From NCBI GenBank assembly GCA_040756435.1, contig JBFLZD010000011.1, positions 7,971 to 71,970 on the forward strand: a stretch of 64,000 nucleotides of DNA, given 5' to 3'. The notes under the pieces were generated by a model. It made no database searches and had not been told where the DNA came from. It was given only the letters and a program-made list of their open reading frames with translations. Below, in pieces: positions 911 through 57,920 of the stretch. Every line of letters starts with the position of its first letter. Position 1 is the stretch's first letter. Origin of the DNA: Spirochaetota bacterium. Lineage in GTDB: Bacteria; Spirochaetota; UBA4802; UB4802. The position numbers were made by a program, and so were the translations under genes.

Positions 911-1170
911 TCTCAAAAGACATCTTTTTTGCAGTGAATTTTGCCTTCCTGTCATTGCCAGGAACGAAGTGACGAAACAATCCCATAGTTGCGAGTGTCG
1001 CAGGTACTCCTACTCGTCATTGCGAGAACCACCAGCGACGAAGCAATCTTTCTTTCTGTGCTATTGAGATTGCTTCGCTACGCTCGCAATGACTTTACAC
1101 TTGCGTCACTGCAAGGAACGACGTGACGTACACTGTGGTTATTGCAAGACCCACGGTTTGTTTTGAAACG
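911..1170. repeat. Mosaic nested-hairpin repeat, copy 1 (degenerate). It lies between two convergent genes.
   Basis: Contains the modules gtcattgcc/gaggaacgaagtgacgaa and cgaagcaatc, the inverse module gattgcttcg and ctcgcaatgac. It ends with cacggtttgttttgaaac like copies 4 and 5. Its left end tgtctcaaaagacatc is the reverse complement of the gatgtcttttgagaca end of copy 6. Confidence 0.65.
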
Positions 1171-1180
1171 GTTCCATAGT

Positions 1181-2338
1181 CTACTTCTCTTTGAGATACT
1201 TTTCAATTCTGTTTAAGCCTTCTTGAATATTTTCCAACGATGTTGCATACGAAAATCGTAAAAAACCCTGGCCGGCGCTACCAAAATCAATACCAGGAGT
1301 TACTCCAACTTTAACTTTCTCTATTATATTGAATGCTTCTGTATATGAATCACTACAGAAAGCACGTGCATCTGCAAACACATAGAATGCGCCTGTTGGC
1401 TCAACATGGATTGTAAATCCCATTGATTGTAATCGCTGAATCATATATTTACGCCTGATGTTGTATGTATTGCGCATATGTTCAACATCCTGCTTTGCGT
1501 GTCGTAATGCGGCAATACCAGCCCACTGAATAAAGTTATTTGCCGAAATCATAAAATTTTGATGAATACGCTGCATTACGTTTGAAAATTCTTTTGGGAA
1601 AATGCAATAGCCTAATCGCCAACCTGTCATTGCATAGAGTTTGGAAAAGCCATTTATAACAAATGCCTTATCAGTAAATTCAAGTATGGAATGCGCTCTA
1701 TCTTTATAGACAAGGCCATGATAAATTTCATCTGAAATGATAAATTGTTTATCAAACTGAGCTATTGTCTGCAGTGCGTCTTTACTCATGACAATGCCTG
1801 TTGGATTACAGGGTGAATTTAACATAATAGCTTTAGTTTTGGGGGTTATTTTTTTCTTTATGTCGTCAGGTCTATACTGAAAACCTTCTTCGGGATAGGT
1901 TATTATTTCATTTACAATTCCTCCTGCTGCAATGATAAAATTTTGATAACACGGATAGCGAGGATTTGATACAATAACATCTTCACCGGGATTAAGTATA
2001 GCAAGCATGGCAAAAAGAAGCGCAGGTGAAGTCCCTGTAGTAACCAGTATCTGATCAGGTGATAGTGACACATTATATTCATCGTAATAATATTCACAGA
2101 TTGCTTCACGCAATTCCAGTAAACCCAACGCGTGGGTATATTTTATTTTTTGTTTTTTCAATGCTTCTATGGCAGCTTCTTCAATAATTTTGGGTGTCAT
2201 GAAATCAGGCTCCCCAACTTCTAAGTGAATCACATGCTCACCTTTGCGTTCCAGCTCTTCGGCCTTTGCCATAACATCCATAACAATAAATGATGTAAAT
2301 TCATGTGCACGTTGTGATAGCATAGTGCGATAGTTCAT
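1181..2338 (-). CDS. PLP-dependent aminotransferase class I/II (aspartate/aromatic aminotransferase-like)
   Basis: 385 aa. Motifs SNPRYPCY, NSPCNPTG and the lysine region FSKLYAMTGWRLGY. ATG at 2338. Confidence 0.85.
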   Translation of the reverse strand: MNYRTMLSQRAHEFTSFIVMDVMAKAEELERKGEHVIHLEVGEPDFMTPKIIEEAAIEALKKQKIKYTHALGLLELREAICEYYYDEYNVSLSPDQILVTTGTSPALLFAMLAILNPGEDVIVSNPRYPCYQNFIIAAGGIVNEIITYPEEGFQYRPDDIKKKITPKTKAIMLNSPCNPTGIVMSKDALQTIAQFDKQFIISDEIYHGLVYKDRAHSILEFTDKAFVINGFSKLYAMTGWRLGYCIFPKEFSNVMQRIHQNFMISANNFIQWAGIAALRHAKQDVEHMRNTYNIRRKYMIQRLQSMGFTIHVEPTGAFYVFADARAFCSDSYTEAFNIIEKVKVGVTPGIDFGSAGQGFLRFSYATSLENIQEGLNRIEKYLKEK

Positions 2339-2600
2339 AATAATATACTCTCACTATTACAAAATTTTATGTAGAGTGTACACATATACTACAACGATAT
2401 TGCTTCCCCACAAGCAATTTGTTAATTACAGCTTCCTATTACAAGTTAACCAGCAAATCACTATCATGACAAGCCTAATTTACAGTAACTATCGCAAAAA
2501 AATAATAGCAACTATTGACAAAATTTCACTTTCACTTTATTTTAATCATTGATTCAATAAACAGTAACTATCCTGCATACTATAATAAGGGGTGAAGCCT

Positions 2601-3092
2601 ATGGTCCAGATTTTGATTTTATACTACTCCCGTTCAGGCAATACTAAGGAGCTTGCACAGGCAATAGCAGAAGGCGTTAAACAGGTTGAGGGTGCTCAGT
2701 GCATACTGCGTTCAACAGAAGAAGTGACCAAAGATGATTTTTTGAATTCACAGGGCATTATTGCAGGATCACCGGTATATTTTGGCACAATGGCAGCTGA
2801 ATTAAAACGTTTGTTTGATGATTATGTTATTATTAGACGTAAGATGGAAAACAAAGTAGGCGCTGCATTTGCTACTTCAAGTGATCCATCAGGTGGTAAG
2901 GAAACCACACTCCTTTCAATATTGCAGGCTATGCTCATCTACGGGATGGTTATTGTTGGTGATCCTATGGAAGCAACAGGTCATTACGGTGTTTCTTGCA
3001 TTGGTTCTCCTGACGAAAAGACAAAAAAGAATGCAGCACTGCTGGGTAAACGTGTTGCTGAATTAGCAAAAAAACTCTGGGATAAACAGTGA
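2601..3092 (+). CDS. Flavodoxin-like FMN-binding protein (NADPH-dependent FMN reductase / WrbA-like)
   Basis: ILILYYSRSGNTKELA is a flavodoxin-type FMN phosphate-binding loop. RBS aagggg lies 8 nt before the ATG at 2601; the ORF track starts it at the GTG at 2592. Its stop overlaps the ispD start (GTGA). Confidence 0.7.
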   Translation: MVQILILYYSRSGNTKELAQAIAEGVKQVEGAQCILRSTEEVTKDDFLNSQGIIAGSPVYFGTMAAELKRLFDDYVIIRRKMENKVGAAFATSSDPSGGKETTLLSILQAMLIYGMVIVGDPMEATGHYGVSCIGSPDEKTKKNAALLGKRVAELAKKLWDKQ

Positions 3093-3796
3093 AACATTGT
3101 GCCATCATAGTAGCAGGTGGTATGGGACAGCGTATGGGTGCTGCTGTCCCAAAACAATTTTTACAGCTTGGCACCAAACCTCTTATTGCATGGTCAATTG
3201 AAACATTAGCTGTATCACAATTAATTGATAGCATAATAATAGCCATTCATCCTGAATACAAGCAACAGCTGGAAGATGTCATCAACACATATTTTCCTGA
3301 TACTACCATTATCATCACGCATGGTGGACAAACACGCCAGGAATCCTGCTTTAATGGATTGCAAGCGTGCAATTTTTCCAGTGATGATATTGTGCTGATT
3401 CATGATGCAGCACGCCCCTTTATAACTATTAGTATGATTAAGCAGTGCATTGATGTAGCTACACTGCACGGTGCATGTGGTATGTATGTTCCTGTAAAAG
3501 AAACGATTGCACAGGTGAATGATTCTACAATAACGCACGTTTTACCACGTGAAATTCTCTATGCAGCACAAACACCGCAATGCTTTCGGTATTCAATAAT
3601 TATTGATGCCCACAAAAAAGCACGCCAGCGTAATATTACTCATGCTACCGATGATGTGTCGCTGGCTTTACTTGCCGGATATACAGTAAAAGCCATAACA
3701 GGAGATTTTTATACAAACATAAAGATTACTACAAACGAAGATATGGAGTTAGCAAAATTGTTAATAAAGGATAAGGGAATAAAGAATATTAGGTGA
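3089..3796 (+). CDS. ispD: 2-C-methyl-D-erythritol 4-phosphate cytidylyltransferase
   Basis: AIIVAGGMGQRMGAAVPKQFLQL matches the IspD N-terminal signature. Length 235 aa. GTG start overlaps the stop of the preceding gene. Confidence 0.85.
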   Translation: MKHCAIIVAGGMGQRMGAAVPKQFLQLGTKPLIAWSIETLAVSQLIDSIIIAIHPEYKQQLEDVINTYFPDTTIIITHGGQTRQESCFNGLQACNFSSDDIVLIHDAARPFITISMIKQCIDVATLHGACGMYVPVKETIAQVNDSTITHVLPREILYAAQTPQCFRYSIIIDAHKKARQRNITHATDDVSLALLAGYTVKAITGDFYTNIKITTNEDMELAKLLIKDKGIKNIR

Positions 3797-3827
3797 TTTG
3801 GGTTGTAGGAATATTTTAATAATATTG

Positions 3828-4532
3828 CTAATCTATCTTTATCTTTTTGATGTGCCCCAGCTGTTTTATTTCATCAAAAAGCAACCGTATACTGAAATCT
3901 TCGTCCATACGGCAATGCACAATCAGATCTGATGTATGGTTTTCTACATCTTCGGTAATGGATACCTGTCGTATGTCAATATCACCAGCATGTGTCTTTA
4001 CTGCTGCTAAAATCTGCTTTGCTGCAATAGCATCGGAATAATAGGTTATCTGCAATATTCTGATTTTCTTCTGTTCAACAAGCCACAGCTCAACTTTTTC
4101 AAATACCTGTAATGTTACCACCAGTAGCACCGTAGCCAAGGCCCCTAAAAAATAAAACCCAGCACCAAATACCATGCCAATGCCTGATGTTGTCCATATT
4201 GTTGCCGCGGTAGTTAGTCCTCGTATGCTGAATCCATATTTAAAAATTGCGCCTGCACCCAGAAATCCAATGCCGCTAATCACCTGTGCAGAAAGCCGTG
4301 CGGGATCACCAGAACCAGGTGAATACACATAGGGAATAAAATATGACAAAATCATAATAATGCATGCGCCCAAAGATAAAACCATGTGTGTACGCAAACC
4401 TGCAGGTTGATAGTGACGCTCGCGTTCAAAACCTATACAGAACCCTGCAATAATTGCACACATAATTCGTACAAGCACTGTAACGGGGTGCAACACATCA
4501 AGACCGGTAATGGTATCAATGACTGAACTCAT
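3828..4532 (-). CDS. MgtC/SapB family membrane protein
   Basis: AGFCIGFERERHYQPAGLRTHMVLSLGA is the MgtC signature. Several TM segments. The C-terminal half resembles the MgtC soluble domain. Confidence 0.7.
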   Translation of the reverse strand: MSSVIDTITGLDVLHPVTVLVRIMCAIIAGFCIGFERERHYQPAGLRTHMVLSLGACIIMILSYFIPYVYSPGSGDPARLSAQVISGIGFLGAGAIFKYGFSIRGLTTAATIWTTSGIGMVFGAGFYFLGALATVLLVVTLQVFEKVELWLVEQKKIRILQITYYSDAIAAKQILAAVKTHAGDIDIRQVSITEDVENHTSDLIVHCRMDEDFSIRLLFDEIKQLGHIKKIKID

Positions 4533-7234: not shown

Positions 7235-7253
7235 ATACCTCTTATTTTAATAA

Positions 7254-9839: not shown

Positions 9840-10682
9840 TCATCCCAATAAATGCAATACCAACTGAGGCTTGAAATTAGCCTGAGCCAGCATCGCAACA
9901 CCACTCTGGACGAGGATCTGGTCCTTTGTAAACTCAACCATTTCGGCTGCCATATCCGCATCCCGTATACGGGAATCAGCAGCTAACATATTCTCATAGG
10001 ACATTGCCAGAGCATTGATGGTATTTTCCATCCTGTTGTAGTAGCCACCAAGGTCTGCCCTTTGCCGATTCAGCTTATCTAAAGCTGCATCGATATACCC
10101 TATCATGGCATTTGCCTGACCAACAGTGGAAATTGACCGTTTTCGGTTCCCATCATAAAGGTTTAAAGCCTTGGCACTCATCGTAGTAATAAAGGCTCTA
10201 ATCCTTTGCCCCTGGTTTGGCCCAATATGGAAGAATATGCTTCCTACTCGCGAATTGCGCGCATAAATGCCGGTGAGCATCTTCATACGGTTGAATTCAG
10301 CGGATGTTGAAATCCTGTCGATTTCATCAATAAGCTGTGACACTTCAACCTGAATCTGCGCACGGTCGGCATTTGAATAAATTCCATTGGCAGCCTGTAC
10401 CGATAGCATCCTGATCCTCTGCAGAATATCATTAATCTGCTGTAATGATCCTTCGGCAACCTGTATAAACGAAAGCCCATTTTCGGCATTTCGTTCAGCC
10501 TGGAACAAACCGTTAATCTGTGTCCTCATTTTTTCAGACACAGCAAGCCCCGAAGCATCATCGCCAGCTCTGTTAATCTGCTGGCCGGATGCCAACCGCT
10601 CAATGGACTTATCCATTCGCGATGAGACGATCTTAAGCTGCCTGTTAGCGAATATAGCGCTTAAGTTGTGATTGATTCTCAT
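9840..10682 (-). CDS. Flagellin (paralog 1)
   Basis: 280 aa. MRINHN...[30 protein letters not shown] and C-terminal [15 protein letters not shown]...[22 protein letters not shown]. These are the conserved flagellin D0/D1 domains with no variable domain, as in spirochaete FlaB or Bacillus Hag. Strong RBS aagggaggg. Confidence 0.9.
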
Positions 10683-10999: not shown

Positions 11000-11848
11000 T
11001 TACACAAGTAATCGTAACACCGATTGGGGTTGTAAATTAGCCTGTGCTAACATTGCAGTGCCTGACTGCACAGGGACTGTGTTCTTGGTAAATTCTACCA
11101 TTTCTTCAGCCATATCAGTATCCCGGATACGGGATTCTGATGCCTGAACATTCTCATACGCGGTCATAAGCCCCTTGGCAGTATGCTCAAGCCTGTTATA
11201 ATAGGCACCTAAGTCAGCACGCTGCTTGGAAAGCTTCTGTAGTGCTGCATCCATAACACCAATGGTTGCATTTGCACCACCTGGTGATGTCAGTGTAATA
11301 GCTACTTTACCGGTAGCATCTTTCATCTTGAAAGCCTGAGCTGTCATGGTTCCAATGAATACCCTGACGCGCTGATTGGCGTTAGGTCCCATATGGAACC
11401 ACATGCTTGACTTTGGATTAATCTTGGAGAACTCACCGGTTAATATTTTGAACCGGTTAAATTCTGCCTGCGATGCTATACGGTCCACTTCATCAACCAG
11501 GGCAGATACTTCAACCTGAATAAGTTGACGATCTGCGTTGGTATAGATACCGTTTGCAGCCTGAACCGCCAGAACCCTTATTCTCTGGATAATCTGGGCA
11601 GTCTGTGCTAAATACCCTTCTGCAGTCTGAACAAACGACATACCATCTTCGGTATTTCGTTCAGCCTGACGCAAACCCTGGATCTGGGTTCGCATCTTTT
11701 CAGACACTGCCAAACCAGAAGCATCATCGCCAGCTCTGTTTATTCTTTCACCAGACGATAGCTTCTCCATGCTTTTGTTCACACTCCACTGTGTGAACTT
11801 CAACGTTCTGTTAGCATTTACAGCACTCATGTTGTGGTTGATAATCAT
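11000..11848 (-). CDS. Flagellin (paralog 2)
   Basis: 282 aa. [18 protein letters not shown]...[31 protein letters not shown]. About 70% identical to paralog 1. RBS aaggagtg. Confidence 0.9.
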
Positions 11849-23794: not shown

Positions 23795-24020
23795 CAACGA
23801 AGCAATCCAACACAATGTCATTGCGAGCACCGCAGGTGCGTGGCAATCTCCTCTTCCGTACCATGAGATTGCTTCACTTCGACAAGCTCAGTGCAAGCAC
23901 TTCGTTCGCAAGGACACATCGGCCAATTCCGTCATTGCGAGCACCGCAGGTGCGTGGCAATCTCGTCATTTATTACCTAAAGATTACTTCCCTTTGACAA
24001 GTGGTTACTGAGTCCCGCCA
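23795..24020. repeat. Mosaic nested-hairpin repeat, copy 2
   Basis: The module gtcattgcgagcaccgcaggtgcgtggcaatctc occurs twice (23817 and 23931). It also carries cgaagcaatcc and cttcgacaagctcag. Lies between the MFS start and the arsM stop. Confidence 0.7.
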
Positions 24021-24134
24021 AAGTACAGTTGCTGAGCTCGTCGAAGCATGGTAACCGCGTACCACCCCTTTACTATGGGAACATTTTGAATACTAAACGA
24101 CAATGGTGAGCAAAAATCAAGAAAAATAAATTAT

Positions 24135-24946: not shown

Positions 24947-25192
24947 CTATTTACTAAATATTGGCGCTATCTGTTCTGCTATTACCGAATTCAATGCATC
25001 TGCTCTCACAAATGCAATACAACATAACGATGCATCACTCTTTAAAGCTGCCACAATAAACTTATCCCCTGCTCTGACCCCTAACTTTTCGCGCAGATCT
25101 TTGGGCAACACCACCTGCCCGCGTTCATCAACAGTAACTATCGCCTCAATTGTGCAGGTTGATGACGAATTACAGCATTGTGTCCCACTCAT
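24947..25192 (-). CDS. AbrB/MazE/SpoVT-type DNA-binding protein with Cys-rich ends
   Basis: IVTVDERGQVVLPKDLREKLGVRAGDKF is a swapped-hairpin AbrB-type domain. The N-terminal CCNSSSTC and a later CC are vicinal cysteines. It lies 17 nt upstream of arsM on the same strand. Confidence 0.6.
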   Translation of the reverse strand: MSGTQCCNSSSTCTIEAIVTVDERGQVVLPKDLREKLGVRAGDKFIVAALKSDASLCCIAFVRADALNSVIAEQIAPIFSK

Positions 25193-31259: not shown

Positions 31260-31502
31260 TTATACATTATGATAATTGAAAGTAAAAATAGAGCAAAATT
31301 TGTTGCTAACAATGTGGTGAAGATTTTGTAGGTAGTGAAACTACCGAACATATTGAATCTTTTATACATAAATGAAAATCAAAAGGCTTGGAAACTGCTA
31401 CGGTGGCGATAGTTACTATGGAAATATAAGCGGATGAAAACGTTATGGAGCAGATAGAGCCATATATTGTGATTAGTGGAGAAATTCCATGATTCCCACC
31501 TA

Positions 31503-31720
31503 TCATTGCAAGTTCTGCGAAGCAATCTAATAACATCTTTGTCATTGCGAGCATAGCGCCTGTGCTGAGTGCTTCGACAAGCTCAGTAACCTCTTGTCGA
31601 AGTGCTTGCACTGAGCATGTCGAAGTGCTTGCACTGAGCTTGTCGAAGTGAAGCAACCCCAGGTTACAAAGGAAATGATTGCCACGCACCTGCGGTGCTC
31701 GCAATGACGAGTTACCTTAC
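31503..31720. repeat. Mosaic nested-hairpin repeat, copy 3
   Basis: Contains gcgaagcaatct, gtcattgcgagcatagcg, three tandem gtcgaagtgcttgcactgagc sub-repeats, and gattgccacgcacctgcggtgctcgcaatgac, which is the reverse complement of the copy-2 module. It lies upstream of prpE. Confidence 0.7.
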
Positions 31721-31875
31721 ACTTTTTTTGTAATACTACAGATATTTATCATTGACAAATAATTTCAGCAAAATAATTTGGTTGGCGACCAATATTTTAT
31801 ATCTAAAGCCAGAGTACTGGCCTGGGCAAATTAAACAAATATACTATAATCCATAGAAAGGGGGATTGGAAGCCT

Positions 31876-33768
31876 ATGAGTTTGTATCAAAAAGTGTATG
31901 ATGAATCTATTAATAATCCAGAAAAATTTTGGTCTGAGGCCGCAAAAAATATTCACTGGTATAAACCCTATACCAAAGTTCTGGATGAATCTAAAAAACC
32001 ATTTTATCGCTGGTTTGTGGGTGGACAGGTCAACACATGTTATAATGCACTTGACCGCCATGTTGAAAATGGCCGCGGCAATCAGGTTGCACTTATATAC
32101 GATAGCCCTGTCACAGATACTATCACCAAATTTACGTATAAAGAAATGCTTGATAAAGTTTCACTATTTGCAGGTGCTTTGCAAAAATATGGGATTAAAA
32201 AAGGCGATAGAGTTATCATTTATATGCCCATGATACCTGAAGCACCTGTTGCAATGCTTGCCTGTGCACGAATAGGAGCAATTCACTCAGTAGTTTTTGG
32301 TGGATTTGCACCAAATGAATTAGCAATACGTATTGATGATGCCAAACCAAAACTCATTGTATCGGCATCATGTGGTATTGAAGGAAAAAAAGTTATAGAA
32401 TATAAACCACTGCTTGATAAAGCCATAGAGATAGCCAATCACAAGCCCGAACATTGTATCATCTTCCAGCGTCCGCAGGTACAATCGCCACTTGTTGCAG
32501 GAAGAGATATAGATTGGAATGATGCCATTCAAGGTGTGAAGCCAGCTGAATGCGTGCCCGTTGAATCAACTGATCCCTTATATATACTGTACACTTCAGG
32601 GACTACTGGCATTCCTAAAGGTGTGGTGCGGGATAACGGTGGTCATGCTGTGGCACTATACTGGAGCATGAAAAATATCTACGGTATTGAACCTGGCGAT
32701 GTGTGGTGGGCAGCTTCGGATGTTGGTTGGGTTGTTGGCCATTCATACATTGTGTATGGGCCATTATTGTATGGTGCAACAACAATTTTGTATGAAGGTA
32801 AACCTGTTGGAACACCTGATGCAGGAGCATTCTGGCGGGTTATTTCCCAGCACAAGGTGAAAGCGTTGTTTACTGCACCCACAGCTTTCAGAGCAATTAA
32901 AAAAGAAGACTCCGGTGGAGAATTTTTCAAAAAGTATGATCTATCTCAGTTTAAATATTTATTTTTAGCAGGTGAACGTCTTGACCCGGATACCTACTAC
33001 TGGGCATCTAATCTGTTACAAAAACCGGTCATTGACCACTGGTGGCAAACTGAAACCGGTTGGCCTATTGCTGCAAATTGTGTTGGCATAGAATTGTTAC
33101 CAATCAAAGCAGGCTCTCCAACCAAACCCGTTCCTGGCTATCAGGTTCACATTATCAATGATGAAGGTAAACAACTGCCTAATGGCACTGAAGGAATTGT
33201 TGTAATAAAACTTCCACTGCCTCCAGGTACACTTCCAACATTATGGCAGAATGACGATAAGTACCGTGAGTCATATCTGGATATATATGATGGATATTAC
33301 TTCACAGGTGATGGCGGGTATTATGATGAAGACGGATACCTGTTTATAATGGGACGAATTGATGATGTAATCAATGTTGCCGGCCACAGACTTTCAACAG
33401 GTGCCATGGAAGAAGTTATTTCAAAACATCCTGATGTAGCCGAATGTGCTGTCATTGGCGTTGAAGATAGCTTCAAAGGACAACTGCCTGTTGGATTTGT
33501 TGTATTAAAAGAAGGTACAACAAAAAGTCATGATCAGATTAAGAATGATCTGGCACAGATGGTTCGTGAACAGATTGGCGCTGTTGCCTGCTATAAAACT
33601 ACACTTATTGTCCAGCGATTGCCAAAAACTCGTTCAGGAAAAATTTTGCGTGGAACCATGCGTAAAATTGCTGATAAAAAGCCATACACCACCCCATCAA
33701 CTATTGATGATCCGGCTATTCTGGATGAAATAAAGGACGCACTCTCTAAAATCACTGTTAGCGCATAG
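31876..33768 (+). CDS. prpE: Propionate--CoA ligase (acyl-CoA synthetase, Acs/PrpE family)
   Basis: 630 aa. The N-terminus YQKVYDESINNPEKFWSEAAKNIHWYKPYTKVLDESKKPFYRWFVGGQVNTCYNALDRHV and the stretch IRIDDAKPKLIVSASCGIEGKKVIEYKPLLDKAI follow the PrpE pattern closely. AMP-binding motif YTSGTTGIPKGV. Confidence 0.8.
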   Translation: MSLYQKVYDESINNPEKFWSEAAKNIHWYKPYTKVLDESKKPFYRWFVGGQVNTCYNALDRHVENGRGNQVALIYDSPVTDTITKFTYKEMLDKVSLFAGALQKYGIKKGDRVIIYMPMIPEAPVAMLACARIGAIHSVVFGGFAPNELAIRIDDAKPKLIVSASCGIEGKKVIEYKPLLDKAIEIANHKPEHCIIFQRPQVQSPLVAGRDIDWNDAIQGVKPAECVPVESTDPLYILYTSGTTGIPKGVVRDNGGHAVALYWSMKNIYGIEPGDVWWAASDVGWVVGHSYIVYGPLLYGATTILYEGKPVGTPDAGAFWRVISQHKVKALFTAPTAFRAIKKEDSGGEFFKKYDLSQFKYLFLAGERLDPDTYYWASNLLQKPVIDHWWQTETGWPIAANCVGIELLPIKAGSPTKPVPGYQVHIINDEGKQLPNGTEGIVVIKLPLPPGTLPTLWQNDDKYRESYLDIYDGYYFTGDGGYYDEDGYLFIMGRIDDVINVAGHRLSTGAMEEVISKHPDVAECAVIGVEDSFKGQLPVGFVVLKEGTTKSHDQIKNDLAQMVREQIGAVACYKTTLIVQRLPKTRSGKILRGTMRKIADKKPYTTPSTIDDPAILDEIKDALSKITVSA

Positions 33769-33797
33769 TAGATAAAAAAGGGGGGGCCAAAATAGAC

Positions 33798-33997
33798 TTC
33801 ATTGCAATTACTTTGCACCCACGTCATTGCGAGGAACGAAGTGACGAAGCAATCCCATAGTTGCGAGCGCCGCAGGCGCGTGGCAATCTCATCTTCTGCG
33901 GCATTGAGATTGCTTCCCTTCGACAAGCTCAGGGCAGGCGCTTCGCTCGCAATGACATTGCACTCCCGTCATTACATGCACCACGGTTTGTTTTGAG
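33798..33997. repeat. Mosaic nested-hairpin repeat, copy 4
   Basis: About 99% identical to the first about 150 nt of copy 5. The termini gtcattgcgag...ctcgcaatgac and an internal gcaatctca...tgagattgc arm can form a long nested hairpin. It ends caccacggtttgttttgaga. Lies between the convergent prpE and CoA-transferase genes. Confidence 0.75.
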
Positions 33998-34009
33998 ATC
34001 ACCTCTTTT

Positions 34010-35356
34010 TTATTCAATTTTATTTGTATTAGTCCATATATTCATTTCATCAGCTTTTTTAATTAATTCATCCCTGAAATTGGGATGAGCAATGCTAATC
34101 AATGCTTCTGCTCGTTCCCATGTTGATTTCCCTTTAAGCTGCACTGCTCCATACTCAGTTACCACATATTGCACAATGGATCGGGGAACAGTTACAATTG
34201 ATCCAGGAGGCAACGTTGGAACAATCCTTGATATCAAATTGCCATCTTTATCCTTGTAGGTTGAAGACAGGCAGATAAACCCTTTACCACCATGTGAACC
34301 AAATGCACCAAATATAAAATCAAGCTGTCCGCCAGTACCGGATTTATGAGCCACTCCTGCTGACTCTGAACAAACCTGACTGAATAAATCCACAGCAATA
34401 GCATTATTAACCGCAACCACTTTATCATTGAGAGCTATAATTCTTGGGTCATTAATATAATTAACAGGATACGAAGCACATGTTGGGTTGTGATGCAGGA
34501 AATCATATAATTTATTGGTACCCATTGCAAATGTATAGCTCATTTTATATTTATCAATGTTTTTCTTAGCACCTGTAACTCTCCCTGCATGATATAAGTC
34601 AACATATGAATCAACAAGCATCTCCGTATGCACCCCCAAATCCTTGAGGTCACTTTCAGCAATCATTTTCCCAACAACATTGGGTAATCCACCAATACCA
34701 AGCTGCAAGCACGATCCATCTTCAATCTGCTCAAGCAAATGCTTTGCAATTTGTTTATCTATATCAGTTGGTTCTAATGCAGGTATTTGTGGTAACGGCA
34801 GGTTTTTGCCTTCAACTATGTGGTCAACCCGTGAAATATGTATTGACTCCTGGTTTCCTCCCAAACAGTATGGGACATGTTCATTAACTTCTACAACTAT
34901 CTTTTTTGCCTTTGTTACAACTGCAGACGTTACAGAATTTGCAAGCCCATAATTGAAGTATCCCCTTGGGTCCATTGGACCAACCGTTAAAAATGCTACA
35001 TCAAAATCCAGGTATTTTCTGATTACCCGTGGTCCCTGATGATAGGTAATAGGAATATAATTACAAAGATGCTGATCATATAATCTTCGTGAGATAGTTC
35101 CAAAATGGAAGTCATTCAAAATGAAATGTTTTCGCTGTGGATCAGCTTCTACTATTTTGGGTACGCGCATATAACAAACACTTCGAACATCCACATTGCG
35201 CAATTCTTCAGCACGTTTTGATAATGCTTCATCAATTGCTTCAGGGAATAATACAAATTCACCATAAAACACCCTGTCGCCTGATTTTACAAAATTAGCT
35301 GCTTCTTCTGCAGTGATTTTCTTCTTTTCATATTCCCATTTTTCAATATCACCCAT
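34010..35356 (-). CDS. Acetyl-CoA hydrolase/transferase family protein (4-hydroxybutyrate/butyryl-CoA:acetate CoA-transferase-like)
   Basis: 448 aa. ...[10 protein letters not shown]...[10 protein letters not shown] shows the family architecture and glutamate region. RBS aaggaga. Confidence 0.8.
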
Positions 35357-35658
35357 TACTCTTCTCCTTTCTATAATGATGATTGCGTTGCCTTATCATC
35401 TTAGATTGCCAAGAGTTTAATTTTAATGTATGCTAATTTTATAGTATCAACATTACATCATCATTTTATTTGATTTATTTATACTATCAATACAACATAG
35501 ATTACTTACATTGAATATAGCATATACAAATTTTACTTCTAAATTTTGTATATATATAAATAACATTATTACGATATTGAATACCATCTAGAAGGTTTGT
35601 AGTGAATTTATAGAAGCGAAGATTGGAGCTTTTGTGGTTAAATTATATATATCATTAA

Positions 35659-35910
35659 CCTCATTGCAATTACTTTACACCAACGTCATTGCGAGGAACG
35701 AAGTGACGAAGCAATCCCATAGTTGCGAGCGCCGCAGGCGCGTGGCAATCTCATCTTCTGCGGCATTGAGATTGCTTCCCTTCGACAAGCTCAGGGCAGG
35801 CGCTCCGACAAGAGGTTACTGAGCTTGTCGAAGCACTCAGCACAGGCGCTAGTCTCGCAATGACATTGCACTCCCGTCATTGCAAGCACCACGGTTTTAT
35901 TTTGAGACAA
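35659..35910. repeat. Mosaic nested-hairpin repeat, copy 5 (copy 4 plus an extra about 50-nt module)
   Basis: Same start as copy 4 (tcattgcaattactttgcacc...). The extra module gaggttactgagcttgtcgaagcactcagcacaggcgc is related to sub-repeats in copy 3. It ends caccacggttttattttgagaca. Confidence 0.75.
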
Positions 35911-35916
35911 CCTCTA

Positions 35917-35993
35917 TTATTTATTTCTTTATATCTTGCAGTGTTTTAAAAATCCTTTTAGCTCTCCACTCATCCAATGAAAGAACATACTGG
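35917..35993 (-). pseudogene. Duplicated, diverged copy of the last 23 codons plus stop of the adjacent DUF4340 gene
   Basis: A 77-nt segment about 85% identical to 36019-36095. On the minus strand it translates to QYVLSLDEWRAKRIFKTLQDIKK*, against the gene's own QYVFTLDEWRAKRIFKTLQDIKK*. It directly abuts repeat copy 5. Confidence 0.55.
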
Positions 35994-36022
35994 GTATCCA
36001 TTCAGGATACTCTACCCATTAT

Positions 36023-36997
36023 TTATTTCTTTATATCCTGTAACGTCTTAAAAATTCTTTTGGCTCTCCACTCATCCAATGTGAAGACATACTGGCTTTT
36101 TGAACTGCTACATATAAACCTGTTGTTTTCATATTCTTTATGGATCACTAGCGTAATCTCTTCTGGCTTTTGGGATTCCTCATCACCTTTTACGGTAACA
36201 GTAATTGAAGCTATTTTACCCGACAATGTTTTAGCATTAACGTCAGGGAATGAATATGCTTTTAGTGGATCAAAAGTATACAACATCTCCTTAACCTTAT
36301 TGTTATCCAGTACTACTGCTGGATGTTCTTTACATATCCACTGCTCTTCTTTTTCAACTTCTTTTGGCTTTTCTTGTTTATCTTTTTGCGTACTACCTGG
36401 TTCCTCTTTCTTCTTTTCTACAATTGTTTTTTGCAGTGTCAATGTTGCATTTTTATACCATAATTTTACTGTATCAATCTTTGCTATATCAAGCTGGACA
36501 ATATCCTTATTCCGCAATTCGTCTACCGTTTTATTGAAGTATGAATCTAACGTATCTTCTGCAAGGTAAACCTTAGGATCACCTTCTAATCGAACATATG
36601 TGTGGCGATAGGTGCTCCCTTTTTTGCCAATATAAACATTACGTACAATCTGACCATTACATTTAGCCTGCACCTGTATTGCATGGTCGTTGTCAAGCTC
36701 ATAGCGTTCATAATGTGGTTTATCGCTAATCAGATCAATAATCTTCAAATCTTTTATCTTATTTACCATATTGGCAATAATATTTTTATCGCCATCAAAT
36801 TCATTTACCTTCCAGCTATCGCCATCCTGTTTTATCAGTATTATCGCTTCACCTTTTTTTAGTACTAGCTCAGTTATGGGGCTTTTTATGGTAGGCAGTG
36901 TAACTACTGTTTTTGTTATCAATGAATTAATGATAAGGTAACCAGCCAGAATAGCTATCACCACAATACTGATAAGAACATTTTTTTTCATGTGCAT
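36023..36997 (-). CDS. DUF4340-domain protein (accessory protein of the GldG-type ABC system)
   Basis: 324 aa with an N-terminal TM anchor. It sits immediately downstream of the GldG-like gene, which is the usual DUF4340 context. RBS aagaggtg. Confidence 0.65.
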   Translation of the reverse strand: MHMKKNVLISIVVIAILAGYLIINSLITKTVVTLPTIKSPITELVLKKGEAIILIKQDGDSWKVNEFDGDKNIIANMVNKIKDLKIIDLISDKPHYERYELDNDHAIQVQAKCNGQIVRNVYIGKKGSTYRHTYVRLEGDPKVYLAEDTLDSYFNKTVDELRNKDIVQLDIAKIDTVKLWYKNATLTLQKTIVEKKKEEPGSTQKDKQEKPKEVEKEEQWICKEHPAVVLDNNKVKEMLYTFDPLKAYSFPDVNAKTLSGKIASITVTVKGDEESQKPEEITLVIHKEYENNRFICSSSKSQYVFTLDEWRAKRIFKTLQDIKK

Positions 36998-46953: not shown

Positions 46954-46959
46954 GGGATA

Positions 46960-50145: not shown

Positions 50146-50181
50146 AGAATCCTCCAATAATAAATTTATAAATTATATTAT

Positions 50182-50661: not shown

Positions 50662-50677
50662 GTGCACCTCCTTTTGC

Positions 50678-51046: not shown

Positions 51047-51067
51047 AAAATGACCTCCCAAAAAATA

Positions 51068-53603: not shown

Positions 53604-53626
53604 AGATTTGACAAATAAGTGCCGAT
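53604..53626 (+). promoter_or_regulatory. Candidate sigma-28-type promoter for flgM (TTAAG, 15 nt, GCCGATAG); it overlaps a TTGACA hexamer
   Basis: GCCGATAG at 53619-53626 is one mismatch from the GCCGATAA consensus. TTAA lies 15 nt upstream. It is about 30 nt before the flgM ATG. It also overlaps a copy of the iterated oligomer (cgatagttac). Confidence 0.3.
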
Positions 53627-53657
53627 AGTTACTATAGATTAAAAGAAGGTGATTACC

Positions 53658-53951
53658 ATGGTTATTGATAAAATAGGGAACATTAAGAATATTGTTGAAC
53701 CTAAAAACACCAAATCGGTTGGTAAAACCAGATCTACCGGGAAATCTGATTCGGTTGAAATTTCAAGCGAAGCCAAAAAGGCTGCTGAGCAATCTAAAAT
53801 TGCCCAGGTTATAAAGCAGACACCCGATATACGAGCTGAAAGAGTAAGGGAAATTAAAGAACAGATAGCTAATGGTACGTACGATTTCAATGATGACCGT
53901 ATAATAGATAAAGTTGCAGAAAAAATTGCTATGCAGCTTTTACGCAAATAA
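53658..53951 (+). CDS. flgM: Anti-sigma-28 factor FlgM
   Basis: 97 aa. Ser/Lys-rich N-terminus and the C-terminus DIRAERVREIKEQIANGTYDFNDDRIIDKVAEKI, the FlgM sigma-28-binding helices. RBS aagaaggtg. Confidence 0.7.
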   Translation: MVIDKIGNIKNIVEPKNTKSVGKTRSTGKSDSVEISSEAKKAAEQSKIAQVIKQTPDIRAERVREIKEQIANGTYDFNDDRIIDKVAEKIAMQLLRK

Positions 53952-53978
53952 ATAAACCCTTTTTAAAGGTTATTATAG

Positions 53979-55205
53979 ATGGCCGGCATAATTGACAAAA
54001 AGGCGGAATCAGGATTCCGCTTTTTTATGTCTAAAGCCTATGGACAAACCATGGAAGGCCTGTGGCCGGATCTGTATATCCCAACTGCGGTATATGCACA
54101 ACCTGATAGTGTAGCACTCCTTCCATCTATAATTAAGCTTTTTGGCTCCCGTATATTATTTATTACCAGTTCAATTGATTTTAACCAGTATAACCACCTT
54201 TTTATGCCCATTGCACGAAGCCTGCAAAACAATAACATACCGTTTATAGTATATGATGAAATTCCTGAAAACAATACTGATTATATTGATACTGCGGTGT
54301 ATTTTGCCCGTAAAACCCATTGCGACCTGGTTATAGGATTTGGCGGCATCAATTCAATCAATGCGGCAAAAGCAGTTGCGCTGTTAACTCCTAACTATTT
54401 CTTTGCACATGAACTTTTTAACTATCCTTTTTTACATGAACCAATACCATTTATCAGTATTCCCGTACATCCACTGTTTGGTTTTGATATAACTCCCTGC
54501 ACAATACTGACTGATATCCATGATGGTATCCATAAAACCTTTTTCCATAATTACATCTTTCCCAAAGCTGTTATCCTTGACCCCGGTATGTCATTTGGCA
54601 TTGATGAAGTAACATTAGCCAATTACAGCATGGCAACATTAGCTATTGCCACTGAATCGGTTATTTCAAGAAATATCAATAATATTACCAATACACTTTC
54701 TTTAAGAACTATAGACCTCATATTTAAAAATTTACCTGCTGCATTGCGCGAAAGTGACAATGAAACTGCGCGACTTAATATCATGATGTCATCACTTATG
54801 GCGGGCATTGCTTTCAGCAGTGCACAGCTTTCTGTGACATTAGCATTATCACTGGCACTTTCTTCATTGACACCAATTGATATTGCATCATTAATGGCTG
54901 TTATGCTACCACATATTATGGAATATAATTTAACTTCATCTCCTGGTAAATACGTACAGATGTCCAAAGTCATGGATGAGGATGTACGTGATATCACCGT
55001 TATTGAAGCTGCAATTAAAGCAGTGGAAGGTGTACGAAAATTAGCACTTGATGTTGATATTCCACAACGTCTATCGCAATTTGATATTAACAAAGGCATT
55101 TTTTCCAAAGTGGCCGAAATTACATTGACCTACCCATTCATTCACAATGCACCCCGTGCACTCAACCGCGACGAAGTTGAAACCATCCTTATTGCAGCCT
55201 ATTAG
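53979..55205 (+). CDS. Iron-containing alcohol dehydrogenase (Fe-ADH) fold protein with degenerate cofactor and metal sites
   Basis: The architecture follows Fe-ADH throughout: ...DLVIGFGGINSINAAKAVA, PFISIPVHPLFGFDITPCTILTD, PKAVILDPGM, and LPHIMEYN. The GGGSxxD motif and the four metal-ligand positions (D, H, H, H, as in FucO) read S, L, L, I. Its stop is 4 nt before larB. Confidence 0.6.
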   Translation: MAGIIDKKAESGFRFFMSKAYGQTMEGLWPDLYIPTAVYAQPDSVALLPSIIKLFGSRILFITSSIDFNQYNHLFMPIARSLQNNNIPFIVYDEIPENNTDYIDTAVYFARKTHCDLVIGFGGINSINAAKAVALLTPNYFFAHELFNYPFLHEPIPFISIPVHPLFGFDITPCTILTDIHDGIHKTFFHNYIFPKAVILDPGMSFGIDEVTLANYSMATLAIATESVISRNINNITNTLSLRTIDLIFKNLPAALRESDNETARLNIMMSSLMAGIAFSSAQLSVTLALSLALSSLTPIDIASLMAVMLPHIMEYNLTSSPGKYVQMSKVMDEDVRDITVIEAAIKAVEGVRKLALDVDIPQRLSQFDINKGIFSKVAEITLTYPFIHNAPRALNRDEVETILIAAY

Positions 55206-55208
55206 CCT

Positions 55209-55958
55209 ATGAGTCAGTCTTCACTTAACAATTTACTGCAACGGTTTAAAAATGGGCTTGTTTCTGATGAGGATTTTTTACAACAACTATCGCACATTAC
55301 AATAGAACAGTTAGGCCACACTACACTGGATCATCACCGTCACACACGGTTAGGTTTTCCTGAAGTCATTTTTTGCCAAAATAAAACTCCCCAACAGGTT
55401 GCCGACATTGCCAAGGCGTTAGCCAAACGTAAGACAAGTTTTTTAGGTACACGTGCCACCAGAGAGCACTACAACAAAGTTAAAAAGTATATTAAAAAGG
55501 CTCACTATAATGAAGCTGGTAAAATCATTTCTTACCGTGCACAAACGCTTCATCATAAACCACACAAACTTTTAATTATAACTGCTGGCACATCCGATAT
55601 TCCGGTTGCTGAAGAAGCAAAGGAAACCGCGCACATTATGGGGCTTACTGTTGAAACAATCTATGATATTGGGGTTGCAGGAATACATCGTGTATTTCAT
55701 AACTGGGGAAATATTTATGATGCCACAGTCATTATTGTTATAGCCGGTATGGAAGGTGCACTACCAAGCGTTATTGGGGGATTAGTGCCCTGCCCTGTTA
55801 TTGCAGTGCCAACTTCAGTTGGGTATGGTGCTTCATTTGGTGGTGTGGCAGCGCTACTTGGGATGCTCAACTCATGCGCACCGGGGATTAGCGTTGTTAA
55901 CATTGACAACGGCTTTGGCGCTGTATACTGTGCCTACCGTATTATTCGCAATTTGTAG
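55209..55958 (+). CDS. larB: Nickel-pincer cofactor biosynthesis protein LarB (PurE-like AIR-carboxylase family)
   Basis: 249 aa. The PurE-like core LLIITAGTSDIPVAEEAKETAHIMG...AGMEGALPSVIGGLVPCPVIAVPTSVGYG and an N-terminal extension typical of LarB. Confidence 0.8.
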   Translation: MSQSSLNNLLQRFKNGLVSDEDFLQQLSHITIEQLGHTTLDHHRHTRLGFPEVIFCQNKTPQQVADIAKALAKRKTSFLGTRATREHYNKVKKYIKKAHYNEAGKIISYRAQTLHHKPHKLLIITAGTSDIPVAEEAKETAHIMGLTVETIYDIGVAGIHRVFHNWGNIYDATVIIVIAGMEGALPSVIGGLVPCPVIAVPTSVGYGASFGGVAALLGMLNSCAPGISVVNIDNGFGAVYCAYRIIRNL

Positions 55959-55967
55959 GATAGTTAC

Positions 55968-57131
55968 ATGAAAATACTCTACTGTGATGTGCAATTAGGC
56001 GCTTCAGGTGATATGCTTGTTGGCGCATTTCTTGATATGGGGCTTCCTGTTAATGTCCTTACTACCCAGCTCCAATCATTATCAGTAAAAGGTTTTGCGA
56101 TAGTTCCTGAAAAAGTAAAGCGCTATGGTATACAGGGCACTCAGGCTGGTATTACCGCACGCATTGACACCACTAACCGTAATCTTGCGGCCATAAACGA
56201 TATTATTGCACACACGACGTGCTCTGACACCGTAAAAAAAAATGCAATGAAGGTTTTTGATACATTAGCCGCTGCTGAAGGCGCAGTACACGGCATTCCA
56301 AAGGAAGAGGTTCACTTTCATGAGGTTGGAGCCATTGATAGCATTGTAGATATACTTTCTTTTTGCATTGGCATTGAATATTTTGCAATTGATACACTGT
56401 ATTACAGCCCATTTGCGCTGGGCACAGGTACTATCAAAACGCACCATGGTACTTTGCCGTTACCTGCCCCGGCAACCGTTAAGCTTACCGTTGGCAAAAA
56501 GGTTATGTTTACCGGACTGGAAGGGGAACTTACTACACCAACGGCTGCTGCCATCCTAGTAACGCTTGGCACACAACTTTCACATTTTGGAGGTACTGTA
56601 GCAAATGTGGGTATTGGGTTTGGCACCCGTGATTATGGTTTTCCCAGTTATACCAGAGCTTTGCTTATTGATGATAACTCTTTTGAATATGAAGTTCTGA
56701 GTGTACTGGAATGCACCATTGACGACATGAATCCTGAAATATATCCCCATGTGGCTGAGTTACTGTTTGAGGCGGGTGCACGGGACGTGTATATGCAGCA
56801 GGTTATAGCAAAAAAAGGGCGTCCCGGGGTGGTTGTTTCGGTACTCTGCCCTCTAGATGTAGTTAATCAATGTACACAGATTCTTTTACGGCAAACAACC
56901 ACCCTGGGGGTCAGAGCATATACCGTCAACCGCTATTCGCTACCACGGGAGTTTGCAACCGTTACCCTGTACGGAGAAGAGATACATATAAAGCAAAGTT
57001 ACCGTTATCAGGAACTATCGCCAAAACCTGAATTTGAGGATTGTAAAAAAGTAGCAGTAAAAACAGGAAAACCTTTATATGTAATAATGGAAGAGGCTCT
57101 AAAGGAATACTACAAACAGAAGAAATTATAG
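55968..57131 (+). CDS. larC: Nickel insertion protein LarC (DUF111)
   Basis: MKILYCDVQLGASGDMLVGAFLDMG is the LarC/DUF111 N-terminal signature. 387 aa. Confidence 0.8.
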   Translation: MKILYCDVQLGASGDMLVGAFLDMGLPVNVLTTQLQSLSVKGFAIVPEKVKRYGIQGTQAGITARIDTTNRNLAAINDIIAHTTCSDTVKKNAMKVFDTLAAAEGAVHGIPKEEVHFHEVGAIDSIVDILSFCIGIEYFAIDTLYYSPFALGTGTIKTHHGTLPLPAPATVKLTVGKKVMFTGLEGELTTPTAAAILVTLGTQLSHFGGTVANVGIGFGTRDYGFPSYTRALLIDDNSFEYEVLSVLECTIDDMNPEIYPHVAELLFEAGARDVYMQQVIAKKGRPGVVVSVLCPLDVVNQCTQILLRQTTTLGVRAYTVNRYSLPREFATVTLYGEEIHIKQSYRYQELSPKPEFEDCKKVAVKTGKPLYVIMEEALKEYYKQKKL

Positions 57132-57590
57132 CTGCTTCAATTCCTCAGAAGAGAAAATCTGGTCAATATCAAGAATAATGACAAACTTGTTTTCAACCTT
57201 CCCAATACCAATGATAAATTTGCCCGATATACCTTTCACAATTGGCGGGGGCGGTTCAATATCTTTGTGTTCCAGTTTGATTACATGACTTACCTGGTCT
57301 ATTGCTAGCCCTATACGCTTGCCTTTTATATCAACAACTATTGCCCGTTTATTTTTTGCACCCTTTTCGGAAATACCAAAGCGCACACCTAAATCAATAA
57401 TTGGTATAACCTTGCCCCGTAAATCAATGACCCCCATAATATAATCCGCCGATTTTGGGAGTGGTGTAACTGCTGGCAGTTTAAGGATTTCCTGTACTTT
57501 TAAAATTTCAATGCCATATTCTTCCTTACCAATATTGAAGCATACTATCTGCATGCTGCTTAGTGCTGTATCTTTAGTCTGGGTTTTCAT
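57126..57590 (-). CDS. CheW-domain protein (second, standalone)
   Basis: QIVCFNIGKEEYGIEILKVQEI...GVIDLRGKVIPIIDLGVRFG is a CheW domain. 154 aa. Confidence 0.8.
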   Translation of the reverse strand: MKTQTKDTALSSMQIVCFNIGKEEYGIEILKVQEILKLPAVTPLPKSADYIMGVIDLRGKVIPIIDLGVRFGISEKGAKNKRAIVVDIKGKRIGLAIDQVSHVIKLEHKDIEPPPPIVKGISGKFIIGIGKVENKFVIILDIDQIFSSEELKQL

Positions 57591-57784
57591 ACTGAAATCC
57601 TTATTTCAAATTTACTATATTATCACAATAGTAGTAATAGTAATGCTATTTTTCAAGTTAAAATTTTTATTTTTTGGCGATAGTTACTGTTATAAAGACT
57701 TTATTTTCAGCAATAATTCCTTAAAAAATTTTTATAATGAATATAGTTACACCGGGGGTGTCCCAAAACAATTCGTGGAGTTCT

Positions 57785-57920
57785 CAATGACGCGGGTGCA
57801 AAGTCATTGCGAGCGTAGCGAAGCAATCTCAATGCCGCAGAAGACAAGATTGCTTCGTCACTTCGTTCCTCGCAATGACAGTATGGCAAAAGTTATTGCA
57901 GAAGATGTCTTTTGAGACAA
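57785..57920. repeat. Mosaic nested-hairpin repeat, copy 6 (short)
   Basis: gtcattgcgag-cgtag-cgaagcaatctc ... agattgcttcg-tcacttcgttc-ctcgcaatgac forms a nested inverted repeat with 11-bp outer arms. It ends gatgtcttttgagacaactc. Confidence 0.7.

Follow-up and report, generated by a model that had tools for sequence, protein, structure and literature searches.

Intergenic mosaics in a Spirochaetota genome are probably built from CGTC-tagged hairpin units related to the targets of small GIY-YIG nucleases

Two described systems of small palindromic repeats lie closest to the subject of this study, six mosaic intergenic elements in a 64,000-nucleotide (nt) stretch of a metagenome-assembled genome (MAG) labelled Spirochaetota bacterium (GCA_040756435.1, contig JBFLZD010000011.1, positions 7,971-71,970; hereafter the window, of 36.7% G+C). 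The first comprises repetitive extragenic palindromes (REPs) with a CGTC tag. According to the survey by Di Nocera, De Gregorio and Rocco (2013; PMC3733652), these REPs carry the tag CGTC or TGTC (variant CCTC), stems of 8-9 base pairs that start A-T then T-A, a loop of 4-5 nt with exceptions in Bradyrhizobium and Thermotogae, and a 3-nt tail near CCA. They occur mostly as inverted head-to-head (HH) dimers, with heterodimers in families CGTC-2/3, and the dimers lie inside larger palindromes. Intragenic copies are found in frame, also among the Rickettsia palindromic elements (RPEs), and the survey describes no dedicated transposase. The superfamily, with four families and reported from five phyla, includes Neisseria dRS3 and Rickettsia RPE-4 and RPE-6.

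The second system adds a protein. Chenal et al. (2025; PMC11893778) report that SsnA of Neisseria, a 94-residue single-domain GIY-YIG protein, binds and cuts the motif NTS (CGTCATTCCCGCGMAVGCGGGAATCYRG) as single-stranded DNA only and on one strand only, and that the RNA form of the motif is not bound. Mutagenesis of NTS showed that three bases upstream of the palindrome govern cleavage and that the C after the palindrome governs binding. The NTS/SsnA pair restricts incoming transforming DNA, and Ssn-related motifs (SRMs) flank ssnA homologues in many phyla. The same source proposes, as a possibility not demonstrated, that repeat, gene and repeat together behave like an insertion sequence (IS).

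The six loci of the window are probably intergenic mosaics of such CGTC-tagged REP/SRM hairpin units, non-autonomous companions of a small GIY-YIG nuclease gene. They represent a new host and a new sequence variant of a described kind of element, and the variant has its own nuclease clade. The window repeats would then belong to a cosmopolitan partnership of hairpin repeat and nuclease and would not be a lineage-specific oddity.

The elements share modules at counts far above those of shuffled sequence. GTCATTGCGAG at up to one mismatch has 15 sites in the window against 0.51 expected, CGAAGCAATC has 16 against 2.8, and CTTCGACAAGCTCAG at up to two mismatches has 8 against 0.04. All of these sites fall within the six elements, apart from three or four chance matches with one mismatch (4955, 2099 and 51353). 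A first-pass annotation of the same DNA had proposed six mosaic intergenic elements with shared, nested-hairpin modules; the counts bear out the sharing and place it well beyond chance. The nesting is seen when the elements are folded with DNA parameters, every element forming long nested hairpins and outscoring its shuffles on both strands (z -2.7 to -8.9). The flanking genes are present at 100% identity in two public short-read assemblies, in both of which the contig breaks inside a repeat. Because the two independent assemblies agree on the neighbouring genes, an assembly artefact is excluded, and the position of the contig ends indicates that the repeats break short-read assemblies. The elements are assembled from hairpin units, from a second module termed F and, in one family, from ordered ends A and B, with the following extents (strand of the units in brackets):

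904-1175, plus strand: element 1, a composite mosaic that runs from end A (GGGGGTGTCTCAAAAGACATC) through a degenerate unit (951-982, +), a second unit (1016-1048, +), a loop and a minus-strand unit (1068-1093) to end B (CCCACGGTTTGTTTTGAAAC); between convergent genes for a Pyr_redox_2 oxidoreductase and an aminotransferase.
23798-24046, plus strand: element 2, without A/B ends; it holds two units (23817-23848 and 23931-23962, both +) whose type is CACC-GCA-GGTG / CGTGGCAATC, and two F modules (23877-23891, 24032-24046); between co-directional minus-strand genes for a transporter of the major facilitator superfamily and a methyltransferase.
31503-31709, plus strand: element 3, partly inverse of elements 2 and 5; a plus-strand unit starting at 31541 and interrupted by an F array (31572-31586, 31611-31625, 31634-31648), then unit 31677-31708 (-); upstream of prpE, between co-directional genes.
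33780-34006, plus strand: element 4, ordered as element 1; a G-rich end is followed by a unit (33823-33854, +) and a variant unit (33859-33888, +), then by a loop, a minus-strand unit (33908-33956) interrupted by an F module (33918-33932), and end B; the frame is AAAAAAG...CTCTTTTTT, and the element is placed between the convergent prpE and CoA-transferase genes.
35659-35915, plus strand: element 5; units 35685-35716 (+) and 35721-35750 (+), split minus-strand unit 35770-35864, end B, no left end; relative to element 4 it holds 46 nt more, with an inverted F module at 35819-35833; between co-directional genes.
57750-57929, minus strand: element 6, a short inverted element of the element-1 type; unit 57803-57828 (+, 5-nt tip), 19-nt loop and unit 57848-57879 (-, 11-nt tip), forming one heterodimer; framed by palindromic CACCGGGGGTGTCCCAAAAC...CTTTTGAGACAACTCCGGTG in a divergent spacer.

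Elements 1, 4, 5 and 6 form one family with ordered ends, in which element 6 is the inverse of element 1. The shared order runs from end A through a unit with tip GAACGAAGTGA, a variant unit, a loop and an inverted unit to end B (CACGGTTTGTTTTGAGA). The variant unit, AGTTGCGAG-CGCCGCAGGCG-CGTGGCAATC, is present in elements 4 and 5, degenerate in element 1 and missing from element 6; end A is missing from element 5. Four copies are framed by an inverted repeat of 16-22 nt. The terminal motif recognised earlier is part of an end module, GG(G/T)TGTC(T/C)CAAAA, which matches with at most one mismatch at elements 1, 5 and 6 only and is present with two mismatches in element 4. Elements 2 and 3 show a second arrangement that lacks the A/B ends, each being in part the inverse of the other. 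In both, CACC-GCA-GGTG / CGTGGCAATC units occur together with module F (CTGAGCTTGTCGAAG), which stands partly in tandem with a 23-nt period and contains a GAG...CGA core, like that of the unit, between short covarying stems.

Elements 4 and 5 are nearly identical over about 150 nt, as stated in the first-pass annotation, but the repeat finder gives 97% identity over 150 nt and not 99%. All copies are intergenic, as had also been stated; the accompanying view that they often sit between convergent genes fits two of the six (elements 1 and 4), whereas three lie between co-directional genes (2, 3 and 5) and one between divergent genes (6). As the annotation also noted, three elements enclose prpE and the CoA-transferase gene, all inside 4.4 kb.

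The anatomy of the unit was derived from loci in bacterial genomes and viral contigs that match exactly GTCATTGCGAG, then 3-30 nt, then CGAAGCAATC; the statistics on flanks, tips and pairs rest on the matches listed. The unit is a hairpin of 24-45 nt composed of an unpaired (C/T)GTC tag, an ATTGC/GCAAT stem, one or two tandem G·A/A·G pairs, a variable tip that mostly ends in a GNA triloop, and a 3' C. On the 3' side, a bulged A lies beside the tandem pairs, and the C that follows the stem is invariant. In all units the stem begins AT...AT, with five Watson-Crick pairs followed by the G·A pairs and then by a G-C pair. At position -4, 114 of 182 units have C and 57 have T. In the 3' tail, position +1 is C in 182 of 182 units, as the search pattern forces, position +2 is C (107) or T (64), and position +3 is A (87) or C (75). 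Beyond the searched motif the flanks are random except for the C/T at -4 and the C(C/T)(A/C) tail, which shows that the unit is discrete. The units of the window carry the tags CGTC (five), TGTC (six) and AGTC (two) and the tails CCC, CTC, CTT and CAT.

The segment between the conserved halves takes three forms: GNA, CGNAG, or a self-complementary mini-hairpin that is often bracketed by GA...GA. It is most often 5 nt long (CGNAG); tips with lengths of 3-45 nt are frequent as well. Among the triloops, GAA (23), GCA (13), AAA (7) and GTA (6) occur most.

Base pairing is under selection in both the basal stem and the tip stem. Tip positions pair at a frequency of 0.60, compared with 0.26 in shuffled tips. 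Among 31 distinct units of 32 nt, the tip stem shows 24 double-sided changes against 5.6 ± 1.8 in shuffles; none of 500 shuffles reaches 24, and the signal collapses in controls with slid partners. For the basal stem, a generalised pattern (GTCAT-NNN-GA...GA(A)-NNN-AT) gives 75 matches whose 5' triplet differs from TGC, and 35 of these are complementary, where about 1.2 are expected. The alternative pairs are TCT/AGA, TCC/GGA, CCT/AGG and CCC/GGG.

Units are paired predominantly with their tags outward. Tag-outward pairs number 66 (41 in genome loci and 25 in viral loci) and tag-inward pairs 7 (5 and 2). The two tips are unequal in 52 of the 66 tag-outward pairs (34 of 41 genome, 18 of 25 viral), and these heterodimers mostly combine one 5-nt tip with one 11-12-nt tip across a median spacer of 23-26 nt. 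With this orientation and these unequal tips, a pair can fold as one long hairpin. Units are also often located at the apex of larger palindromes, such as terminator stems. The doublet of element 6 aligns over its whole length with doublets of unrelated genomes:

57803-57879, plus strand: cleanest tag-outward heterodimer of the window, about 75-83% identical over 77-85 nt to doublets in Alpha- and Gammaproteobacteria loci and in viral contigs.

The unit thus compares closely with both described systems. Like SRMs and NTS, it is a 20-50-nt hairpin preceded by a (C)GTC tag, its stem begins with A-T then T-A, and a C directly follows the palindrome, a likeness that is in part forced by the search pattern. 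It is likewise directional, present in many copies and clustered around genes, and it shares the repeat-gene-repeat layout at a single-domain GIY-YIG gene of about 95 residues, in other genomes and not in the window. It differs from SRMs in its basal stem, ATTGC/GCAAT with G·A pairs, and in a tip that is far more variable (3-45 nt), and its occurrences here include viral contigs and a Spirochaetota MAG. With CGTC REPs the unit shares the tag, the A-T/T-A stem start, a tail close to CCA, inverted pairs and heterodimers, in-frame copies, embedding in palindromes and the lack of an adjacent transposase. Bradyrhizobium, sphingomonads, Micavibrio and Rickettsiales are among the hosts of both. The loop of the unit is not confined to the 4-5 nt given for CGTC REPs, among which exceptions are also described, and the exact unit occurs in many more phyla than five as well as in phages.

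At the level of whole elements, the window resembles the bacterial interspersed mosaic elements (BIMEs) of E. coli and the Neisseria intergenic mosaic elements (NIMEs), which are strain-polymorphic intergenic mosaics of small palindromic units, REP or dRS3, that alternate in orientation and have other conserved motifs between them. The label "BIME-like" given in the first-pass annotation is right in kind: in these mosaics, too, REP-type hairpin units follow one another with alternating orientation. BIME units, however, are GTAG-tagged REPs linked to the REP-associated tyrosine transposase (RAYT), and the window mosaics additionally have the F module and an inverted repeat as a frame. The small dispersed repeats that Elhai et al. 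(2008) described in Nostoc are reportedly 21-27 nt long, structured, marked by compensatory changes, nested in each other and in minitransposons, and confined to one cyanobacterial subgroup.

The ATTGC-type unit is linked with an Ssn-like gene clade. A consensus sequence for small GIY-YIG proteins, used solely as a tblastn probe, identified a 96-residue open reading frame (ORF) in a Planctomycetota MAG (contig L065) with a GIY-YIG domain (PF01541, E 6e-18). A window-type unit is present on both sides of this ORF, tag-outward. Its homologues, about 95-99 residues long, make up at least 7,985 protein clusters. Five further homologues on longer contigs (within L307-L314) were chosen irrespective of any repeats; in each of them the unit, or a variant close to it, lies no more than about 110 nt from the GIY-YIG gene, giving six of six with L065. 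The variants near these genes read GTCGTTGCGAG...CGAAGCAAC, CGTGGCAAT and GATTGCTTCA...CTTCGCAATGAC, and the CGTGGCAAT form beside one homologue is the form found in elements 2-5 of the window. The size and single-domain layout of the genes agree with the Ssn family.

On three of the homologue contigs (L308, 701-997; L310 and L311, 701-994), the small GIY-YIG gene and its flanking units are located between restriction-modification genes. These neighbours are an HsdR-like helicase with an N6 methylase, or an N4/N6 methylase with ResIII.

The exact unit is present in at least 120 loci of contigs representing one genome per species, from many phyla. Among the matches listed are Alpha-, Gamma- and Deltaproteobacteria, Bacteroidota, Cyanobacteria, Chloroflexota, Planctomycetota, Patescibacteria, Zixibacteria, Ignavibacteriota, Omnitrophota, Latescibacterota, Gemmatimonadota, Armatimonadota, Melainabacteria, a Helicobacter and a Sporomusa. 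At least 120 further loci are in IMG/VR viral contigs. The idea raised earlier that the modules might be a lineage-specific expansion does not hold for the core unit, which is cosmopolitan in bacteria and phages and is part of a superfamily that has been described along with a protein partner (PMC3733652, PMC11893778). Neither unit nor doublet occurs in any of 5,426 E. coli genomes, and in annotated collections (plasmid and cultured-phage sets) the unit is rare and the doublet is limited to five plasmid and five phage records. The literal motif strings, looked for in the text of 8 million papers, turn up in primers only.

The unit is abundant in phage contigs and is found there even in frame within a portal gene. 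In the SPP1-type portal genes of two viral contigs, a doublet (L216, 4697-4786) and a 218-nt mosaic (L242, 8769-8987) are inserted at one shared position. Both inserts are open in the gene frame, with 29 and 72 residues, respectively, replacing about 10. Portal homologues in L239, L298, L183 and L220 have no unit insert. Two further phage contigs carry a doublet inside another coding region. Related phage contigs differ in the presence or absence of units at homologous positions and in the tandem gain or loss of half-units. In viral contigs (L181-L300), the C-rich strand carries the single units in 34 of 44 clusters, and units of one contig agree in 21 of 26 cases, with no gene-strand bias.

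REPs in the classical sense are copied by a Y1 (HUH) tyrosine transposase, either RAYT or the TnpA of IS200/IS605, that acts on single-stranded hairpins. The build of the units is compatible with such an origin, as they combine an imperfect hairpin, which has an unpaired 5' tag at its base, with inverted pairs and the GNA triloops of stable DNA hairpins, and in-frame insertion of REPs within genes is known (PMC6006769). A Y1_Tnp gene is also present in a relative, near the orthologue of the left edge of the window. But the tag is (C/T)GTC and not the GT[AG]G of classical REPs, and the Y1_Tnp genes of the relatives, including the homologue in L175, are flanked by a different repeat, ATGCTCTGACCCC, and not by these units. 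Neither tblastn nor a scan for the HuH...Y motif detected a Y1 transposase in unit-bearing loci totalling about 2.4 Mb, and no RAYT is reported to have CGTC repeats at its flanks (PMC3733652). Copying by a Y1 transposase is therefore very improbable.

The Y1_Tnp genes themselves show a REPtron-like layout. In L301 (6108-7090) and L175 (2110-2973), a gene for a 198-residue Y1_Tnp protein (PF01797) is located between inverted copies of ATGCTCTGACCCC; in L301 it lies just beyond the orthologue of the left edge of the window. The window contains one exact and one near copy of ATGCTCTGACCCC (56907-56919 and 25069-25081).

The mosaics are recent and changeable in this species. Syntenic relatives were collected via the CoA-transferase gene. 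At the element-4 site, L126, L127 and L129 (flanks about 78-84% identical) have only a short terminator hairpin, and in L124 and L173 (about 88%) the site is occupied by an unrelated insert of 216 nt whose ends are similar. L123, a near-identical strain (about 97%), contains element 4 together with a 46-nt F-module segment that the window has in element 5 only. Reciprocally, element 5 of L123 is without this segment, which is bounded by a 7-nt direct repeat. At the element-3 site, L123 has a different module content, and L173, L126 and L127 have no unit at all. At the element-5 site, a small hairpin in the window corresponds to an extra composite element in L123 and to an unrelated 146-nt element in L124 (5493-5638) with perfect inverted ends GGCTGTCCCAAAAG. 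At the element-1 site (window about 890-1180; L301 4178-4625), a ParE/RelB toxin-antitoxin pair takes the place of the element in relatives whose proteins are at least 90% identical. Absence from orthologous sites of relatives with up to about 90% nucleotide identity, together with the altered content in a near-identical strain, indicates that the elements arrived recently and continue to change. The recent spread proposed in the first-pass annotation is upheld by these differences, and the presence/absence polymorphism that it suggested looking for is seen at the element sites. The differences between near-identical strains also make the repeats useful as strain markers.

The small hairpin at the element-5 site separates two copies of a gene end:

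35916-35993: duplicated 3' end of a DUF4340 gene, copy of 36018-36095; the last 78 nt are 86% identical, the copy adjoins element 5, and the 24-nt spacer is the small hairpin.

In L126 (5290-5560), this same gene end and its terminator hairpin are present in three tandem copies, and in L124 the 146-nt element with perfect inverted ends is located between the copies.

These sites bear on the alternative that elements 1, 4, 5 and 6 are MITEs (miniature transposable elements with inverted repeats), derived from an IS and moved by a DDE transposase acting on their terminal inverted repeats, with the units as interior passengers. The end module described above would supply the terminal repeats, being specific to elements 1, 5 and 6 and recognisable in element 4. 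The 146-nt element of L124 has unrelated content between its perfect ends and occupies exactly the position at which L123 has its composite element, and the insert with similar ends in L124 and L173 stands at the element-4 site. No direct target duplication is seen, however. The sequences beyond the ends are inverted repeats of variable length, suggesting a site inside pre-existing palindromes. In addition, neither the window nor 0.5 Mb of sequence from relatives yielded a full-length IS that has such ends, no transposase is present among 30 window ORFs scanned against Pfam, and the ends are missing from elements 2 and 3. The MITE label of the first-pass annotation, in the classical IS-derived sense, is accordingly not established, with inverted ends in four of six copies but neither a target duplication nor a parent IS found, and such an origin is unlikely.

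A second alternative is that the elements are selected RNA-level devices, such as bidirectional terminators, 3' stabilisers of messenger RNA or processing sites, and not selfish DNA. They are located at gene ends, and element 4, framed by an A-run and a T-run, stands in place of the simple terminator hairpin of the relatives. In bacterial loci (L002-L121), single units follow the dominant gene strand, 38 versus 17 among the matches listed, with no GC-skew bias, and the literature argues that many REPs are transcribed. Against a function in RNA, the tips contain G·T pairs no more often than A·C mismatches (18 versus 19), so that nothing about them is specifically RNA-like, and GNA-type triloops are a mark of DNA hairpins. 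Rfam 15 yields no family at the gathering threshold in the window and, with E up to 5, none in the region 31400-36000; in 18 unit-rich loci the units have no match either, the sole hit being a tRNA. A scan for simple terminators finds none at the elements. Units are antisense to every gene in phage contig L195 and lie in frame within coding regions elsewhere, and they are present or absent between near-identical strains. The inability of the Neisseria nuclease to bind the RNA form points in the same direction (PMC11893778). A selected role in RNA is for these reasons decidedly unlikely. Large bidirectional hairpins at gene ends are probably a side effect of the mosaics, and a terminator-like side effect is plausible at elements 1 and 4. 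At gene ends the repeats take the place of ordinary terminators.

The interpretation of the loci as mosaics of CGTC-tagged REP/SRM units accompanying a GIY-YIG nuclease suggests a mechanism, drawn from the Neisseria system and from the gene neighbourhoods. Each unit would fold when the DNA becomes single-stranded. A single-domain GIY-YIG nuclease (Ssn) of about 95 residues would recognise the folded unit on one strand only, reading the stem sequence and the 3' C, and would cut a few nt upstream of the GTC tag. The repeats may multiply and reshuffle through a copying step together with slippage and recombination between copies. In the Spirochaetota MAG they arrived recently, at places that in relatives hold terminator hairpins or only a short spacer. 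By analogy with Neisseria, an Ssn enzyme of this organism would bind and cut them, and any part that it plays in copying is likewise inferred.

Several observations weigh against this interpretation. No GIY-YIG gene is found by tblastn in the 64-kb window or in the loci of its relatives. For the GIY-YIG clade, a putative member of the cd10448 family, Pfam assigns only PF01541 and NCBIfam nothing specific, and the nearest solved structure in the PDB is a distant UPF0213 protein. The published SRM pattern, HGTCWYN(0-2)YYVSBRHN(0-5)WNVSBRGN(0-2)RNCYNB, which the Neisseria NTS passes, has no match in the window, the unit failing it at two pyrimidine positions. The strand biases disagree, with bacterial loci following the gene strand and viral contigs the C-rich strand. 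Since the loci were picked by exact match to the unit, the sequence conservation of the basal stem is partly a matter of ascertainment. The activity reported for Ssn (PMC11893778) consists of binding and cutting, and the protein is not known to copy DNA. Finally, the Ssn model leaves the F module and the framing inverted repeat unexplained.

The mismatch to the published pattern has a consequence of its own. A common variant, defined by the ATTGC stem, the G·A pairs and the variable tip, escapes the pattern, and motif counts and nuclease associations are therefore probably underestimated. It is possible, if doubtful, that the GIY-YIG nuclease and its hairpin repeats constitute a mobile system of a new mechanistic type, in which cutting beside a folded unit lets units copy into the loops of other hairpins, and that the ATTGC variant represents a second specificity class missed by current motif searches. 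Copying into hairpin loops, if it occurs, would account for the nesting of units in terminator stems and in each other, the tag-outward heterodimers, the in-frame portal copies and the strand bias in phages. The locus offers concrete polymorphic sites for the study of repeat copying, and under such a mechanism these Spirochaetota sites are where copying could be caught.

Other identities were considered for the unit. A hammerhead-like or other ribozyme core, a k-turn and a fragment of a universal RNA were dropped after reading of the sequence and the negative Rfam scans. A CRISPR repeat was dropped because the tandem arrays have identical spacers, and an integron attC site because there is no GTTRRRY box. 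All-against-all clustering of 3,353 ORFs from 120 loci revealed no recurrent protein family near the units. The ORFs that have units on both sides are phage structural genes and one IS256-family transposase, which looks like a secondary insertion and was rejected as the mobiliser of the units. This IS256/Mutator-family gene, on a Patescibacteria contig (L049, 556-1838), has its own inverted ends and lies exactly between two unit doublets, a position suggesting that the palindromic junction served as the insertion target.

The first-pass annotation also warned that spurious ORFs through the elements would contaminate protein databases. ORFs do cross the elements, but no contamination is found. 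A 64-residue ORF through element 4 has no homologue among 5.8 billion protein clusters, and eight mechanical ORFs through the elements have no exact entry in a collection of 15 billion proteins, in which real proteins of the same MAG are present. The ORFs through the elements have no Pfam match.

The 30 window ORFs compared with Pfam are ordinary chromosomal genes, including those for flagellins, FliD, ArgH, IspD, prpE, CoA-transferase and CheW; CheA was identified via a public contig. Proteins MEW6525975-MEW6526021 are encoded on the 72-kb contig of the MAG, and the sequencing runs SRR25621601 and SRR29635772 contain this strain. Tandem flagellin paralogues at 10270-10569 and 11436-11735 are 71% identical over 300 nt.

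The window contains one further repeated sequence, the 14-mer CAGTAACTATCGCC, with 15 copies at up to two mismatches against 0.19 expected. The copies are located at 2483, 13190, 17433, 19253, 25132, 27739, 29848, 31405, 43019, 48514, 53621, 56096, 57009, 57676 and 62878, on both strands and in both genic and intergenic positions, and their flanks are not conserved. The reverse complement, GGCGATAG, bears a loose likeness to the sigma-28 -10 box.

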